A stretch of 64,000 bases of DNA from assembly GCF_003334785.1 (NCBI RefSeq), contig NZ_QOWV01000008.1; one strand, 5' to 3'. The notes beneath the pieces are model-generated. The model ran no database searches, had not been told where the DNA came from, and was given only the letters and a program-made list of their open reading frames with translations. Origin of the DNA: Escherichia coli (GTDB taxonomy: Bacteria > Pseudomonadota > Gammaproteobacteria > Enterobacterales > Enterobacteriaceae). Below are positions 55,933 to 64,000 of the stretch, piece after piece. Positions within the stretch are counted from its first letter, which is position 1. Each line of letters opens with the position of its first letter. The position numbers and the translations under genes are program-made.

Positions 55933-57080
55933 TATTGCATTGCTTTATAAGCGGTTACCGCCTCGGATACAACCTCGCTGTTGGCATCAAGACCGGAAAT
56001 CTGTGCCAGCGCCGCCTGCGGACCTTTGTCAGCGATCAGTGCTGCCAGTTCCTGAGCCTGCGGATCATCTTCACTGCGGAAGTGCATTGCAGCGGCAATA
56101 CCTTCAATCAGGTTTTTATGTGGCAGACCATATTCCAGCGTACCGAGCAGTGGCTTGATCAGACGGTCGCCAGCACTCAGTTTACGCAGTGGCTGACGGC
56201 CTACGCGCTCTACATCATCTTTCAGATACGGGTTCTCAAAACGGCCGAGAATTTTCTGGATGTACGCCGCATGCTTGTCAGCGTCAAAGCCGTAGCGCTT
56301 GATCAATACTGCACCACTTTCTTCCATCGCACCTTTTACCACCGCGCGGATTTTCTCGTCGAGAATCGCGTCACGAATGGTCTGATGACCGGCCAGTTTT
56401 CCGAGGTACGCGGTTATAGCATGACCCGTGTTCAGGGTGAAGAGTTTACGTTCGACAAATGCCATCAGGTTGTCGGTTAACTCCATGCCTGGGATGTTCG
56501 ACAGTGCGCCTTTGAACTGCGTTTTATCGACAATCCATTCGCTGAAGGTTTCTACCGTCACTTCCAGCGGATCGTTAGTTGCCGAAGCCGAAGGCGGTAC
56601 GATGCGGTCAACGGCGGAATCGACAAAGCCAACGTGTTCTTCTACCCACGCTTTGGCGTCTTCCGGCAGGGCGTTCATCACATGGCCTTTCAGCTGCGTG
56701 GTACCGCGTACCATGTTTTCACAGGCGATGATGTTCAGCGGGGATTCATTACCTTGTTCTTTACGTTTCACCAGCCCTTTGGCGATTGCCGGAGCAATAC
56801 GTTCCAGCACAACCGGGCCAACGGCGGTAGTGACTAAATCAACCTGAGCAATCAGATCAACGACATCATCACCAATGCTGCTGACAGCATTGACGCCGGA
56901 AACGGTATCTACCTGCTCGGTTTCACCAACCACATGTACCTGATAGCTATGACGGGCATTCAGGGCATCAAGTACCACCTGATTGACATCGGCAAACGTC
57001 AGTTGGATACCCGCGTCTGCCAGCAGTTTACCGATAAAGCCACGACCGATATTACCTGCGCCAAAATGTAATGCTTTCAT
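55932..57080 (-). CDS. mtlD: Mannitol-1-phosphate 5-dehydrogenase
   Basis: 382 aa from [15 protein letters not shown]; the 488-aa track ORF reads through the upstream repeat region. Confidence 0.95.
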
Positions 57081-57084
57081 AGTA

Positions 57085-57309
57085 TTAACCTTCATCAATG
57101 TTTTTACCCGAGAGGGCTGGGGTGAGGCTTTTCCCTCACCCAAACCCTCTCCGTGAGGAGAGGGGCAGCGCCGGATGCGGCGTAAGCGCCTTATCCGGCC
57201 TACAAGAACGTGCAAATTCAACAAATTGTGATGCATCCTGTAGGCCTGATAAGCGTAGCGCATCAGGCAATTAACCCCACCTTCTCCATGTGGAGAGGGT
57301 GGGATTGGA
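57085..57309. repeat. BIME-type repeat cluster between mtlA and mtlD
   Basis: Two opposed REP units (GCCGGATGCGGCGTAAGCGCCTTATCCGGCCTAC and TGTAGGCCTGATAAGCGTAGCGCATCAGGC) flanked by GGGTGAGG/CCCTCACCC and CCCTCTCC/GGAGAGGG hairpin modules. Confidence 0.75.
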
Positions 57310-59223
57310 TTACTTACGACCTGCCAGCAGTTCCAGCACTTCATCCACGCTGGTGGTGTGTGCCAGACGCTCGATGACGGACTCATCATCCAGTGCATTG
57401 GTCAGGCTGGTGATAACCTGAATGTGCTCGTTGTTACGGGCAGCAATACCAATCACCAGACGGGCAATGTCATCTTCTTCTTCACCGAAGCGCACGCCTT
57501 CCGGGTACTGGCAGAACACGACGCCCGTTTTCAGTACGCGATCTTTCGCTTCAACCGTACCGTGTGGCACCGCGATAGACTCACCCAGATAAGTCGGGGT
57601 CAGTTTTTCACGATCCAGCATCGCCTGAACGTATTCCGGCTCAACGTAACCGCCTTTCACCAGCTGCTCGCCAGCAAAACGAATCGCTTCTTCTTTGGTT
57701 GCCGCTTTGCGACCGAGGAAGATGTTCTCCGCGCCTAGCTTGAACAGGTTAGCACTGGAATCGTCAAAGCTGTCTTTCAGGCTGTCTTTTACTTTCTCTT
57801 CGTTTGCCGTGTGGCGTTGGGCAGCAACCAGACGTTCGGTCAGGCTGGTGTACAGGCCGCTGTCGAGGAAGTTGGTCAGCGAAATATGCTGTGCCTGCGG
57901 AACCTGGCGCATAGCGCGTTCGGTCAGGTCACGGTGAGTGATGACGAGGTCCACATCTGGCGGCAGGTTGTTGATCGCGCTGTTAGTAACAGAAATCTGC
58001 GACAGACCTGCATCCTGAATTTTCTTACGCAGAACGCCTGCGCCCATCGCACTGGAACCCATACCGGCGTCACAGGCAACGATGATTTTACGTACGTGGC
58101 TCAGGTCGTTAGTCACATCGCCAGCAGACAGCGGAGATGCGCCTTTAGACTCAGCTTTCATGTCCTGCATACGACGAGTTGCTGCTTCAATATCATCTTC
58201 TTCTTTCACTTTGCTGGTTTTCAGCAAAATAGCAGAGACAACGAAGGAGACAGCCATCGCCGCACACACACCCGCGATGTTAGCGAAGTAAGCACCTTTT
58301 GGTGTCATCGCCAGTACAGCAAGGATAGAACCCGGAGATGCCGGAGAAACCAGACCACCGCCCAGGATAGTCAGCGTGAACACGCCAGTCATACCGCCGA
58401 GGATGACTGCGAGGATCAGACGCGGATTCATCAGCACATACGGGAAGTAGATTTCGTGGATACCCCCCAGGAAGTGGATGATTGCCGCACCGCCCGCAGA
58501 CTGTTTAGCGCTACCACGACCAAAGAACATGTACGCCAGCAGCACGCCCATACCTGGACCTGGGTTAGCTTCAATCAGGAAGAAGATTGATTTACCCAGT
58601 TCATGGGACTGCTGAATACCCAGCGGCGAGAAGATACCGTGGTTAATGGCGTTGTTGAGGAACAGGATTTTCGCCGGTTCAACAAAGATAGACGCCAGCG
58701 GCAGCATGTCATGGACAACCATGAAGTTAACGCCCGCAGCCAGCATTTTGGACAGGGCTTCAACAATCGGGCCAATGCCGAGGAATGCCAGAATAGCGAG
58801 GATCATCCCGATGATGCCTGCGGAGAAGTTATTCACCAGCATCTCAAAACCGGATTTGATCTTACCGTCTACCCAGCGGTCGAAGTGCTTAATGCACCAG
58901 CCGCCCAGCGGACCTGCAATCATAGAACCGAGGAACATCGGCATGTCTGCGCCGACGATAACGCCCATGGTGGTGATGGCACCGACTACGCCGCCACGTT
59001 CGCCGCCTACCAGCTTACCACCGGTATAACCGATCAGCAGCGGCAGGAGATAAGTGATCATCGGCCCGACCAGCTTCGCCAGCGTCTCGTTCGGTAACCA
59101 CCCTGTTGGAATAAATAACGCGGTGATGATACCCCACGCGATAAACGCGCCGATATTTGGCATCACCATGTTGCTGAGGAAACGACCAAAGCTTTGCACT
59201 TTGATCTTAATATCGGATGACAT
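57310..59223 (-). CDS. mtlA: PTS mannitol-specific EIICBA
   Basis: 637 aa [32 protein letters not shown]... Confidence 0.95.
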
Positions 59224-59363
59224 AAAAACACCCCTTCTTATGTTTGCTGTCGCGCAGGCTGGAAGCCCGAGGTTTTTTGTTAATGTGGCGGCAGAGGTAG
59301 CCGGACCTTGTAGATACTGCGAAATCTGGCACTGAATCGGTTAACTGTCCAGTCGACGGCCTT

Positions 59364-59546
59364 TTGTGTGATATCAATCACATAAATATAGGGGGTAGAG
59401 AGGTAATTGACGTGACGTTCATCACAAAACGCTTGTGTAAAAAAGCAACAAGGCGGCGATTTTCGCTAAAAATGGCATTTAAATGTGAGTAGTGTCACAT
59501 TTTTGTTTTGATGGTTTGTTGAATCTTTGTGATCTGAATCACAAGA
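59364..59546. promoter_or_regulatory. Array of CRP binding sites in the mtlA promoter
   Basis: Three perfect TGTGA-N6-TCACA sites at 59367-59382, 59484-59499 and 59528-59543, plus near-perfect CGTGA-N6-TCACA at 59411-59426. Confidence 0.65.
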
Positions 59547-59759
59547 TATTTTCTTACGGCGTTCACCTGATGTGATCTACAGCATGTTATGCCTTCGTCA
59601 TACAATCGTTATGTAACTAAGCAACTCATCACCTCTAAAAATTATTCTTTGGTGTTATGGCGAGAATCGCGAACCCGGATTATTGTCAAAATATCAGCCT
59701 GACTCCCTTCTGGCTGCCAGCCCAAAAACAACACTGATAAACGTGAATCCGAGGCAGAT

Positions 59760-60122
59760 ATGTTTCTAAACTATTTCGCGTTGGGAGTGCTGATCTTCGT
59801 CTTTCTGGTGATTTTTTATGGAATCATCGCGATACATGACATCCCTTATCTGATTGCCAAAAAGCGCAACCATCCCCATGCCGACGCTATTCATACGGCG
59901 GGCTGGGTGAGCCTGTTTACTCTGCATGTTATCTGGCCGTTTCTGTGGATCTGGGCGACGCTCTATCAACCGGAGCGTGGCTGGGGTATGCAGTCACATG
60001 TTGCGTCGCAGGAGAAAGCGACTGACCCGGAAATCGCCGCACTTTCTGACCGAATTTCCCGGCTGGAGCATCAACTCGCCGCCGAGAAAAAGACTGACTA
60101 TTCCACGTTCCCGGAGATCTAA
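59760..60122 (+). CDS. yibI: Inner membrane protein YibI
   Basis: 120 aa [29 protein letters not shown]... Confidence 0.8.
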
Positions 60123-60124
60123 TT

Positions 60125-61261
60125 ATGGATCTATTGATTGTTTTAACTTACGTGGCGCTGGCGTGGGCGGTCTTTAAAATCTTCCGCATTCCGGTAAATC
60201 AGTGGACGCTGGCGACGGCGGCGCTGGGAGGCGTGTTTCTGGTGAGTGGTTTGATTTTGTTGATGAACTACAACCACCCTTACACTTTTACCGCGCAAAA
60301 GGCAGTGATAGCGATCCCTATCACGCCACAGGTGACGGGAATTGTTACTGAAGTCACTGACAAGAATAATCAGCTTATTCAAAAGGGCGAGGTGCTTTTT
60401 AAGCTCGACCCGGTTCGTTACCAGGCGCGAGTTGACAGACTTCAGGCTGACCTGATGACGGCGACGCATAATATAAAGACGCTGCGTGCGCAGCTCACTG
60501 AAGCGCAGGCCAACACCACCCAGGTTTCAGCGGAGCGCGACCGTCTGTTTAAAAATTATCAACGTTACTTGAAAGGCAGCCAGGCGGCGGTGAATCCGTT
60601 CTCGGAACGTGACATCGACGATGCGCGGCAAAATTTCCTCGCGCAGGATGCGCTGGTGAAAGGCTCGGTGGCGGAGCAGGCGCAGATCCAGAGCCAGCTC
60701 GACAGTATGGTTAACGGCGAGCAATCGCAGATTGTGAGCTTAAGAGCGCAACTTACTGAAGCAAAATATAACCTTGAGCAGACTGTCATTCGCGCGCCGA
60801 GCAATGGCTACGTTACTCAGGTACTGATCCGCCCAGGTACATACGCAGCTGCCTTGCCGCTGCGTCCGGTGATGGTCTTCATCCCCGAGCAAAAACGGCA
60901 AATTGTCGCCCAATTTCGGCAAAACTCGCTGTTACGTCTGAAACCCGGCGATGATGCGGAAGTGGTGTTTAACGCGCTACCTGGGCAGGTGTTTCACGGC
61001 AAACTGACTAGTATTTTACCTGTCGTGCCAGGCGGTTCTTATCAGGCGCAGGGGGTATTGCAATCATTAACGGTCGTGCCCGGCACGGACGGTGTGCTGG
61101 GAACCATTGAACTGGACCCTAACGATGATATCGATGCCTTACCCGACGGCATCTACGCCCAGGTGGCGGTTTACTCCGACCATTTCAGCCATGTTTCGGT
61201 GATGCGGAAAGTGCTGCTAAGAATGACCAGCTGGATGCATTATCTTTATTTGGATCATTGA
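60125..61261 (+). CDS. yibH: HlyD-family membrane fusion-type protein YibH
   Basis: 378 aa with N-terminal TM and coiled-coil region; 2-bp gap after yibI. Confidence 0.85.
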
Positions 61262-61823
61262 GGGGGAGGGGGGAGATTATGGAACTTTGCTCCTTGTAAG
61301 GACTAATTATTTTTGCATATTACTTCATTAGCTGCGATGATTTTTCTTTAATATTCATTATGTTAATAAGTTCTGGATGAGTGTGCTCTCATTGGATTTT
61401 TTATCCGTCTTGTTCTGCCGCAGGATGAGACTATACATCGTCGAGATCGCAATGATGATATGAGTTGTTCCTCCTGCGACGGCTCTAATCAAAAAAGAGC
61501 AGGAGTGCTTTTCCATCTATTGCGATGATGGCTTTATTATCTGAAGGATGACAGTCACATTTAAAAAATATTTAATCTATAGATCACAATGTAGGGTCAT
61601 GGAATATATGTATACAACTATTTTCTTCTTCACTTTTAATTATCGTATTCATTATAAAACTAAGTTAAAAAAACTCCTGGAGAGTGAGTTATTAATATAT
61701 TTTTAAATAAAATTAAGTTATCATTCATCGATGCACTTTATAGAATCATCAATGGCCATAATAGTACTATTAACTCTCAATTTTATATTTTTATCATCAC
61801 TACAAATATTAACTGAATTTATA

Positions 61824-62242
61824 TCAATGATTTTTTTTATTCTTATCTTTTATTTTATTTACTGTTTCAATGCAATCAGCGGCAAGTTGGAGTGGATTTA
61901 GATTTTTCAGATATGGTCTTATGATCTTTCCCTTACTTAATAAATAGCATGTATAGGATTCGGAAAGTCCAGCATCTATTTTGTACCTCCTTATATTAGA
62001 TAAGGATGTGAGAAATTCCTTGTTATCATTCGCAGCCATATATGCCAGTCCGAGTTCAGCCTCTGCGGCCTTACAGGCAAAATAGCTTAGTGAACACGCT
62101 TTTCGTCCCTCTTTAGTACTGGCTGATATTAGTGCCCATAATATTGCTTTGTCTGCCAAATCTAACTCTCTCTGAAATTGTCTTGCAGTAACTGCACTCG
62201 CAGAAATAGAGAAAAAAATACAATTGTTAATAACCTTGCCAT
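61824..62242 (-). pseudogene. Secreted Sel1-like repeat protein (putative Rhs immunity-type), apparently frameshifted in a homopolymer
   Basis: ATG at 62242 opens MARLLTIVFF then stops after 26 codons; the 111-aa Sel1-like body (61824-62159) is in the frame 2 downstream; one extra A in the A7 run at 62212-62218 would restore a signal peptide plus body. Confidence 0.5.
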
Positions 62243-62541
62243 ATTTTTTAGTCCGTAACTGTTAATGTGCTATCTGGCTCTGAAAATATTAACTCATTTA
62301 ATTTTTGCATGTCATTAGATAAACCAGTTATACAACCCTCGGAACAGAATCGAGGTCCTAAAGACGGACCAAAAGCGTTTAAACAACTATGTATTGAAAA
62401 TCCATTGCGATTATAAGTTCCTGTATTAACTGACGGTACTAATCGTATGCCGTCAGGTTTTCTATTGCTTGCTCCCGGGTCATTAACATTCCAACTCCAT
62501 AGGCCTTGAGGTATTGGCCATCTATTTATAAATGTGTACAA

Positions 62542-62860
62542 CGGGGATTATTTTTACATTGCATATTATTACCAGAAGCGACTGGAATACTAAGCACATC
62601 ATAAAAATTATCATCACATGGTATATCTGAAACACACGAAAGCATACCTAAAGTTATGCTGTATAAACAGGTGGCTAATCCCAAGGGGATCGATTCCAGA
62701 AATCGGGTTCAACGGATACTGATAAAAATTCCACCTACCTTCCAGCCCAATCGGAGCCTGAGTGTTATACCGCCCCTGCTGCGGTTAATGTTACCGATAA
62801 TAGTTATAGTACAGCCCTGATTCATCATCATACTACTGCTGCGGCAGTCTGATGAACTAT
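62542..62860 (-). pseudogene. Degenerate Rhs core-end remnant with short tip
   Basis: Minus-strand translation gives [43 protein letters not shown], a stop-riddled copy of the Rhs core C-terminus. Confidence 0.5.
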
Positions 62861-62865
62861 TGCTT

Positions 62866-63327
62866 TTACGGATTCTCCTTATTCTTCCTTCTATCCATTC
62901 GCTTTAGCTTTTTGAGCTCTTGAAGTTTGCTCTTTGCATCAATATTACCGTTATTTACAGCGAATTCCATCCAATAAATAGCTCTATTCAAATTATAATA
63001 TTCTGATAATGTTGGATTTGTATCTGATAAAAAGACCCCATAATTAAACTGCGCTGTAACATTCCCCTGAGATGCTGATCTTTCCAAGAATCGCAATTGT
63101 TTGTAAATGTTATTTTTAGTAAAGCAGTAATATTGATATAGTCGAAATGATGCCTCTGAATCACCATGTTGTGATTTATACTTCAGTTTCATCAACTTTT
63201 CTTCACTTAAATCATAGGTCATTGCTGTAGACCCCATCATACTTTCGTTTTGTTTTATTTTCACATCAGCACCATGCAATTGACAAATAAAAGAGAAATA
63301 AAAAAATAGTAACAAGCATGCTTTCAT
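62866..63327 (-). CDS. yibG: Sel1-like repeat protein with signal peptide, YibG-like; putative immunity partner of the upstream Rhs tip
   Basis: 153 aa; N-terminal MKACLLLFFYFSFICQLHGA; starts 11 bp after the Rhs tip stop. Confidence 0.6.
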   Translation of the reverse strand: MKACLLLFFYFSFICQLHGADVKIKQNESMMGSTAMTYDLSEEKLMKLKYKSQHGDSEASFRLYQYYCFTKNNIYKQLRFLERSASQGNVTAQFNYGVFLSDTNPTLSEYYNLNRAIYWMEFAVNNGNIDAKSKLQELKKLKRMDRRKNKENP

Positions 63328-63338
63328 ACATCTACAAC

Positions 63339-64000
63339 CTATCTTATATCACTGGGTTTTTCTGGCGTACCTTGCATATTAGAAATGGGGTGCCCAGATG
63401 GCCCATATGTTATCCAATTACCAAGGTCTTTTGTTGTTATAGCCATTAGATCCTTATTTGAATTAAGGTTCGTTGGTGCTGTTAGCACTGTATCCATTTT
63501 TAACTTACCATTAGTTCCTCGCCCCCACCACGTCCATAGCGTGTCAGGTCCTATTACATTTGTATGTAACTCTTTAGCTAATTGGCTAGCAAATGAATTT
63601 TGTCCTTTACCTGTATTACAAGAAAATAACCAAACTGTCATCCCATCTTTATAATTCCCATCAAATTTAATTAGATATGCTAGATCTTTAGCTGTCATGA
63701 TACTGCGCGTTGCGGATTCAATAGATGTGGGGGTACCATGCCCCCCGATTGTGAAAACGCCTGGGATATTAATCTCATCAGCTACAGAATGGATAAGATC
63801 ACTTTCGGGGTATAAATTTATATCAACCAAACCTTGCGGATCTACATTTATGACCGGATTCAACGGATACTGATAAAAATTCCATCCCCCCTTCAGCCCA
63901 ATCGGATCCTGAGTGATATACCGCCCCTGCAGCGGGTCATAATAGCGGTGGCGGTTGTAATACAGGCCGGACTCCTCATCATACTGCTGCCCCGGCAGGC
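63339..64000 (-). CDS. Rhs-family protein C-terminal region (core end plus variable toxin tip), 5' end beyond the window; YibJ-like orphan
   Basis: Minus-strand translation of 63864-64000 gives ...[48 protein letters not shown] in frame with the 174-aa tip. Confidence 0.7.

Follow-up and report, generated by a model that had tools for sequence, protein, structure and literature searches.

Escherichia coli yibJ/yibG: a predicted clan CD cysteine peptidase at the C-terminus of an Rhs protein and its Sel1-like partner with a predicted export signal

The toxin tip and small downstream gene of the Escherichia coli rhsA region form a pair that has already been catalogued and discussed in silico: the locus is annotated in K-12 and EHEC, and the toxin class was catalogued in 2012. 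In EHEC EDL933 the equivalents are the RhsA C-terminus (z5017 / EDL933_4854) and 'RhsAI' (z5018) (PMC7216683). An in-silico study of EHEC proposed RhsA/RhsAI as an effector/immunity pair and described Sel1/TPR repeats in RhsAI. The tip was modelled there on C. difficile toxin A, and the model was read as GTPase inhibition, not as the cysteine protease domain (PMC7216683). A second EHEC pair consists of z0268, with an Rhs tip resembling the RtxA CPD, and z0269, with seven Sel1 repeats (PMC7216683). No experimental data on toxicity, rescue, substrate or immunity were found in the literature for yibJ or yibG.

Several other described systems are relevant to this pair. Zhang et al. (2012) defined 'Tox-Caspase' as a C-terminal toxin on RHS proteins with a conserved H and C, linked to T6SS and present in actinobacterial repeat arrays (PMC3482391). 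Tce1 (PA0256) and Tce2 (PA2372) of P. aeruginosa are DUF4347 effectors loaded by Hcp3 and secreted by H3-T6SS (PDB 9qpe; PMC13323088). The C80 domains of V. cholerae MARTX and of C. difficile TcdA/TcdB are internal, InsP6-activated and self-processing, and belong to host-directed toxins. On the immunity side, PA5086, PA5087 and PA5088 are exported proteins of small size that are built of Sel1 repeats, and their genes adjoin that of a T6SS effector, as yibG adjoins the tip (PMC7216683).

The window analysed here is the whole stretch of 64,000 nt from contig NZ_QOWV01000008.1 of E. coli (GCF_003334785.1), with positions counted from the first letter. Between 55 and 64 kb it carries mtlR-mtlD-mtlA, yibI and yibH, and then AT-rich Rhs remnants, which is the E. 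coli rhsA neighbourhood. Positions 59001–64000 align with K-12 MG1655 over 5 kb, gap-free, at 99.86% identity with seven differences, and the 662-nt stretch 63339–64000 is 99.4% identical to the K-12 yibJ region. Judged by this comparison, the pair in the window is K-12 yibJ/yibG and EHEC RhsA/'RhsAI'; the first-pass annotation had already suggested the K-12 match. The features of the locus are the following:

63828..64000, minus strand: 3' end of the Rhs core, running off the window; it ends in DPIG-(18 residues)-DPQGL, the aspartyl autoprotease/demarcation motif.
63342..63827, minus strand: C-terminal toxin domain (tip), 162 residues, VDINLY...PSDIR; predicted clan CD (caspase/CPD-like) cysteine peptidase.
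63738..63740, minus strand: codon of the predicted catalytic His (GGHG), tip residue 30 and residue 87 of the window translation; an invariant column, following strand VFTIG in the model.
63618..63620, minus strand: codon of the predicted catalytic Cys (LFSCNTG), tip residue 70 and residue 127 of the window translation; an invariant column, following strand TVWLF in the model.
63582..63584, minus strand: CAA (Gln) codon, which is TAA in K-12 MG1655, by base-by-base comparison with NC_000913.3 (difference at 63584).
63339..63341, minus strand: TAG stop of the Rhs ORF, read directly from the sequence; it overlaps a possible AGG ribosome-binding site of yibG.
63271..63327, minus strand: predicted Sec signal peptide of YibG, about residues 1–19, MKACLLLFFYFSFICQLHG; hydropathy peaks at residues 3–15, and the cleavage site is inferred.
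62866..63327, minus strand: yibG, 153 aa, a Sel1-like repeat protein with a predicted export signal and predicted cognate immunity protein, 11 nt after the stop of the tip.

Translated on the minus strand, 63339–63998 reads uninterrupted through 219 codons to a terminal stop, and the product contains WLFSCNTG. Residues 1–57 alone match NCBIfam RHS_core (E 3.7e-31, the last 57 positions of the profile) and Rhs_assc_core (E 6.1e-21; 74.7 bits against a cut-off of 32.5 in the TIGR03696 / NF041261 test). The end of the core is placed at ...VINVDPQGL because both matches stop at residue 57, and solved Rhs core structures in the PDB terminate at the same DPxG(L) motif. The core end has a GC content of 0.53, the tip one of 0.39, and yibG is lower still at 0.32. 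The ORF therefore has the characters of an Rhs polymorphic toxin, namely the core end, DPxG-(18 residues)-DPxG(L), a shift in base composition and an adjoining small gene downstream. The first-pass annotation had described a core-end demarcation, a variable tip of roughly 165 aa and a 153-aa Sel1-like neighbour with an N-terminal export signal; all three are borne out, the tip measuring 162 residues and the ORF at 62866–63327 having a hydrophobic N-terminus. The tip is found at ≥99% identity in about 3,490 of 5,426 complete E. coli genomes, and by a second count in 3,358 of them (about 62%), O157:H7 included. It is not a chance ORF, since it recurs at ≥99% identity across these thousands of genomes.

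Beyond the Rhs core, searches of Pfam, NCBIfam, PADLOC and the PDB, with the single sequence and with a profile, gave no match to the tip. A word-indexed protein search returned E. coli-like sequences and one 48% relative, and nothing else; an exhaustive HMMER profile search returned 698 homologues at E≤1e-3. With few exceptions these carry the domain no further than about 60 residues from the C-terminus, usually directly after DPxGL. Giant actinobacterial proteins also contain it, as three to five internal repeats, of which some no longer have the key residues. Several genomes carry the tip ORF in RefSeq as 'DUF8616 domain-containing protein'; DUF8616 is absent from the Pfam and NCBIfam scan results for the tip, so this assignment rests on the RefSeq annotation.

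When 61 and when 34 family members were aligned, one His and one Cys were the sole invariant residues, with the Gly after the His invariant as well in the 34-sequence alignment. The His belongs to GGHGTP and the Cys to WLFSCNTG, and both had been singled out by the first-pass annotation as possible catalytic residues. The His-Gly pair comes first (VFTIGGHG), and the Ser-Cys pair follows 40 residues on (TVWLFSC). In the AlphaFold model of the tip (pLDDT 82, pTM 0.81), strands at model residues 33–37 and 73–77 directly precede the His and the Cys, respectively. Placement of His and Cys each immediately after a hydrophobic strand is the classic clan CD arrangement. The best structural neighbours of the model are P. 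aeruginosa Tce1 (DUF4347), the cysteine protease domains of MARTX and TcdA, gingipain and legumain; the similarity to clan CD is remote, with Foldseek E-values of 0.01–0.04 and TM-scores of 0.3–0.4. The tip thus shows the order His-then-Cys after hydrophobic strands and, in the model, an alpha/beta fold of caspase type, and it is predicted to be a clan CD (caspase/legumain/CPD-like) cysteine peptidase with a His-Cys dyad.

Peptidase C80 (PF11713) did not match the window tip even at E≤10, and matched one of the 61 homologues at E≤1e-3. DUF4347 (PF14252) gave no match to the window tip, and five of the 61 homologues reached E≤0.1 (best 6.3e-3). A bridge to Peptidase_C80 was sought through an actinobacterial repeat array, where the scan gave DUF4347 alone (E 0.041). 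The Stv domain (PF21527), a separate family of similar description, had no profile match in the tip or in the 61 homologues. Two other folds were considered and set aside: papain-like Cpe1 (PMC12136450) has a different fold and a triad in which Cys precedes His, and the nitrilase/amidase folds found among the lower structural matches use a Glu-Lys-Cys triad that has no counterpart among the conserved columns.

Compared with described toxins, the tip fits the 'Tox-Caspase' class when matched to the published description alone: both have a caspase-like fold, the H and C, the most C-terminal position on RHS proteins, and actinobacterial arrays in which some copies lack the catalytic residues (PMC3482391). 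Together with this class, the clan CD fold model, the RefSeq DUF8616 name and the earlier toxin A model (PMC7216683) speak against the initial view that the tip is of unknown toxin family. Tce1 and Tce2 are its nearest solved relatives, Tce1 being the best fold neighbour, and the sequence similarity is marginal. The two P. aeruginosa proteins differ in being cargo of the Hcp lumen, in lacking an immunity gene and in being non-toxic in E. coli, with Tce2 toxic in yeast (PMC13323088). The tip is also unlike the C80 domains, being terminal and shorter, devoid of conserved basic residues, accompanied by an immunity-like partner and below the Pfam C80 threshold.

These neighbours bear on whether the tip might act on a host, either as an anti-eukaryotic effector or as an InsP6-activated self-processing domain of the MARTX/TcdA/TcdB type, with YibG serving as adaptor or chaperone. 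The closest folds are indeed InsP6-activated CPDs and the H3-T6SS effectors Tce1/Tce2, with toxicity of Tce2 seen in yeast but not in E. coli, and a host-directed role was proposed in the EHEC paper (PMC7216683). However, no Lys or Arg column is invariant or 90% conserved in the tip-family alignments, so that, judged from alignment, the family shows no sign of a conserved basic pocket for InsP6. Being terminal, the domain has nothing C-terminal to release. Moreover, the co-diverging small gene found downstream in all ten loci surveyed (see below), mostly with a predicted export signal, is a signature of antibacterial immunity, which Tce1/Tce2 lack. A host-directed function is accordingly judged very unlikely, and the antibacterial reading of the pair is preferred.

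YibG is named 'sel1 repeat family protein' in RefSeq, and its Pfam matches are weak (TPR_27, E 8.3e-4; Sel1, E 1.2). Its AF2 model (pLDDT 85) begins with a hydrophobic N-terminal helix, which a disordered linker joins to helical repeats (residues 42–151); this last region is all-helical with pLDDT >93. The best 12 PDB fold matches are all Sel1 proteins (probability 1.0, E 2.7e-3 to 2.6e-2), and by this modelling YibG has Sel1/TPR-type helical repeats. PA5087 and PA5086, both immunity proteins of T6SS effectors, appear among the fold matches. The likeness of YibG to PA5087 (5jkp; Foldseek E 0.026) and PA5086 (6lch; E 0.37) is one of repeat fold alone. PA5086/PA5087/PA5088 counter the phospholipase D effector PldB, whereas the predicted target of YibG is a cysteine peptidase. 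EHEC RhsAI is annotated with 132 aa (PMC7216683) as against 153 aa for YibG here and in RefSeq; the shorter form lacks the signal peptide, because its start would lie 21 codons later.

The partner survey covered ten loci, that is, nine tip homologues looked up in their contigs and yibG of the window. A YibG-family gene lies directly downstream of the tip homologue in 10/10, and four partners that had been left out of the building of the YibG HMM score 37–86 bits. Tip and YibG diverge in parallel, at about 50% and 46% identity. The EHEC pair z0268/z0269 fits the same rule of a tip paired with a Sel1 protein. In this respect the present family departs from the catalogue of 2012, where Imm36/Imm57 are listed as the immunity proteins of Tox-Caspase (PMC3482391) and not a YibG-type Sel1-like protein. 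In two of the homologous loci (L008 and L009) the genes upstream are vgrG-PAAR or vgrG-DUF2169, as expected of a type VI secretion locus. In another (L011, 9940–10886), a YibG-family gene follows a 2449-aa non-T6SS Rhs protein; it was missed by the gene caller and found by six-frame translation.

At L006/L007 (4001–6925), a caspase-like tip with 50% identity and a YibG homologue lie in an orphan array, with an Ntox34 fragment and then a YibA-like HEAT-repeat gene behind them. The presence of the HEAT-repeat gene beside the caspase-like/YibG pair resembles K-12, where yibA is followed by yibJ-yibG, in reversed order. The YibG homologue of this array has apparently lost its signal or lipoprotein leader through a frameshift.

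The hydrophobic N-terminus is kept in YibG and in all enterobacterial homologues, and some distant homologues have lipoboxes. Judged from the N-termini, 7/10 partners have a signal peptide or lipobox, all enterobacterial ones included; the partners at L010 and L014 have no export signal, and that at L006 is ambiguous. The regular pairing in 10/10 and the export signals in 7/10 support a toxin/immunity pair that would act mainly in the envelope. With two partners lacking an export signal and one ambiguous, periplasmic action is not uniform across the tip family. The periplasmic protection that had been proposed from the signal peptide of YibG is thus plausible for most partners, and fails as a general rule for the two or three of ten without a recognisable signal.

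Immediately beyond yibG, on its downstream side, is another Rhs cassette in a decayed state (62248–62831, minus strand), which corresponds to K-12 yibS/yibW. It contains a core-end fragment with internal stops and a 97-aa tip ORF with SIHSC...SEGCITG, which has weak Pfam matches to Tlde1_dom (E 0.0083) and YkuD (E 0.038). By sequence it looks like the remnant of a peptidoglycan toxin of L,D-peptidase type. The ORF at 61824–62159 (minus strand; 111 aa) corresponds to K-12 yibV (PF15596) and is carried in RefSeq as a longer 'Imm57 family immunity protein, frameshifted'. Imm57 was linked to Tox-LD-peptidase and to Tox-Caspase in gamma-proteobacteria (Zhang et al., 2012; PMC3482391). The link to Tox-Caspase may reflect the position of this gene two genes after a yibJ-type tip at the present locus.

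The compartment and chemistry of the tip could also be other than proposed, the domain being an active antibacterial toxin that works in the cytoplasm, or that carries out transamidation, peptide ligation or hydrolysis of non-protein amides. Most characterised Rhs tips act in the cytoplasm, clan CD transamidases/ligases (GPI transamidase, asparaginyl ligases) are among the fold matches of the tip, and the two partners without export signal would suit a cytoplasmic target. This is considered improbable in view of the seven of ten partners that are predicted to be exported or lipidated, with every enterobacterial one among them, and of the probably periplasm-acting L,D-peptidase-like cassette next door. 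That cassette indicates that envelope-directed tips do occur at the rhsA locus. Peptidase action in the envelope remains the preferred reading for the tip of the window.

The allele of the yibJ/rhsA tip in the window is intact. K-12 yibJ (b3595) is annotated as a pseudogene of 233 codons, which has a premature stop after ...SFAS and ends 254 nt before yibG (b3596); it is a pseudogene because TAA replaces the CAA of the window. The K-12 tip follows rhsA and yibA as an orphan. The yibA-tip orphan junction is present in 2,943 complete E. coli genomes, so the orphan form is commoner than the main-core form, and in the majority of E. coli the tip is an orphan that has no promoter. The window stops within the core and does not itself show whether its tip is an orphan or part of the main gene. 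The three SNPs in the last 145 nt were tried as markers of the two forms and rejected, as an orphan-type genome (L012) is only one base off the window; these positions fail to separate the two forms because cores exchange sequence.

The relatives of the window are more informative. Two genomes, JKHS016 and LR-64-2, match the last 25 kb of the window without a difference, and both are without yibA. In JKHS016 the tip terminates a full-length 1409-aa 'RHS element core protein', in which RHS_core spans residues 1–1247 and DUF6531 is present, and the PAAR motif reaches E 0.18 at most. In LR-64-2 the tip sits on a remnant of the main rhsA, whose 5' part is deleted. Among the best 15 matches to the last 2.7 kb of the window, the tip is on the main rhsA core in 15/15. 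Five genomes share the first 25 kb of the window at full identity, and three of them, AST198, NCTC9087 and SHP24, belong to these 15; their tip is annotated as 'RHS element core protein'. The nearest relatives of the window thus all lack yibA and have the tip joined to the main core, most with the full-length 1409-aa Rhs protein. By this comparison the tip is most likely part of the main rhsA in the window's strain, and the term 'orphan' used in the first-pass annotation is probably wrong for it.

The same data were weighed for a relic, that is, a passive passenger of a recombination hotspot that the window's strain would neither express nor use. Decay is frequent around this tip: K-12 yibJ is a pseudogene through its premature stop, approximately 2,943 of some 3,358 tip-bearing genomes have the orphan form behind yibA, frameshifted or truncated tip variants are common in the protein database, the next cassette downstream of yibG is clearly decayed, and LR-64-2 lacks the 5' part of rhsA despite its identity to the last 25 kb of the window. 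The window ORF, however, is intact over 219 codons, and so is yibG; the tip is ≥99% identical across about 3,490 genomes, and most of the nearest relatives carry it on the full-length 1409-aa Rhs protein. The same fusion of the tip to the main RhsA was confirmed by PCR in EHEC EDL933 (PMC7216683). An inert passenger is therefore unlikely in the window's strain; for K-12 the description holds.

The reading preferred here, held with moderate confidence, is that the tip is an Rhs-delivered clan CD His-Cys peptidase that acts in the envelope or periplasm and is neutralised by exported YibG. Sequence and model show the end of the Rhs core, the fold, the two invariant residues, the steady gene pairing and the N-terminal export signals; the steps below are proposed on that basis. 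The aspartyl protease of the Rhs shell would cut at DPIG-(18 residues)-DPQGL, so that the 162-residue domain is freed and yet held in the shell. Contact-dependent delivery would then release the domain into a neighbouring cell, and for homologues adjoining vgrG/PAAR genes type VI secretion may be the delivery route. In the envelope or periplasm of the target the His-Cys dyad would cleave a protein or peptide substrate. In sibling cells exported YibG would bind the tip in the periplasm and block the toxin. A tentative extension is that the family represents a widespread class of Rhs-delivered, caspase-fold antibacterial peptidases with periplasmic or envelope action and a dedicated exported Sel1-repeat immunity protein, ranging from Enterobacteria to non-proteobacterial lineages.

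The additions made here to the earlier catalogues are modest and consist of a fold assignment based on family alignments, the recognition of a YibG-type Sel1 protein as the constant partner, and the finding that most partners carry a predicted export signal. Should the tip be an envelope-directed protease of caspase fold, it would represent a new protease class and a new target among interbacterial toxins. Constant pairing with YibG-type proteins would also mean that yibG, and with it many 'sel1 repeat family proteins', could be assigned a function. In O157:H7 the tip cassette sits on a full-length Rhs protein.

Some further observations concern the relatives of the tip and the rest of the window. 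Proteins P0025, P0026, P0029, P0040 and others (3,000–6,800 aa) have three to five internal His-Cys domains and WXG100-like N-termini, and some of their domains have lost the His or the Cys. A preprint on Stv describes repeated 'Peptidase C80/Stv' pairs, possibly in the same giant proteins. Two E. coli protein clusters (P0018 and P0017) represent a tip allele that is frameshifted just before the catalytic His, which is a second, independent inactivation besides the nonsense codon of K-12. At ~57080–57400, the longest mtlD ORF extends upstream into the mtlA-mtlD intergenic region and includes a duplicated 'SPHGEG' peptide, which suggests repeated palindromic (REP-like) elements.
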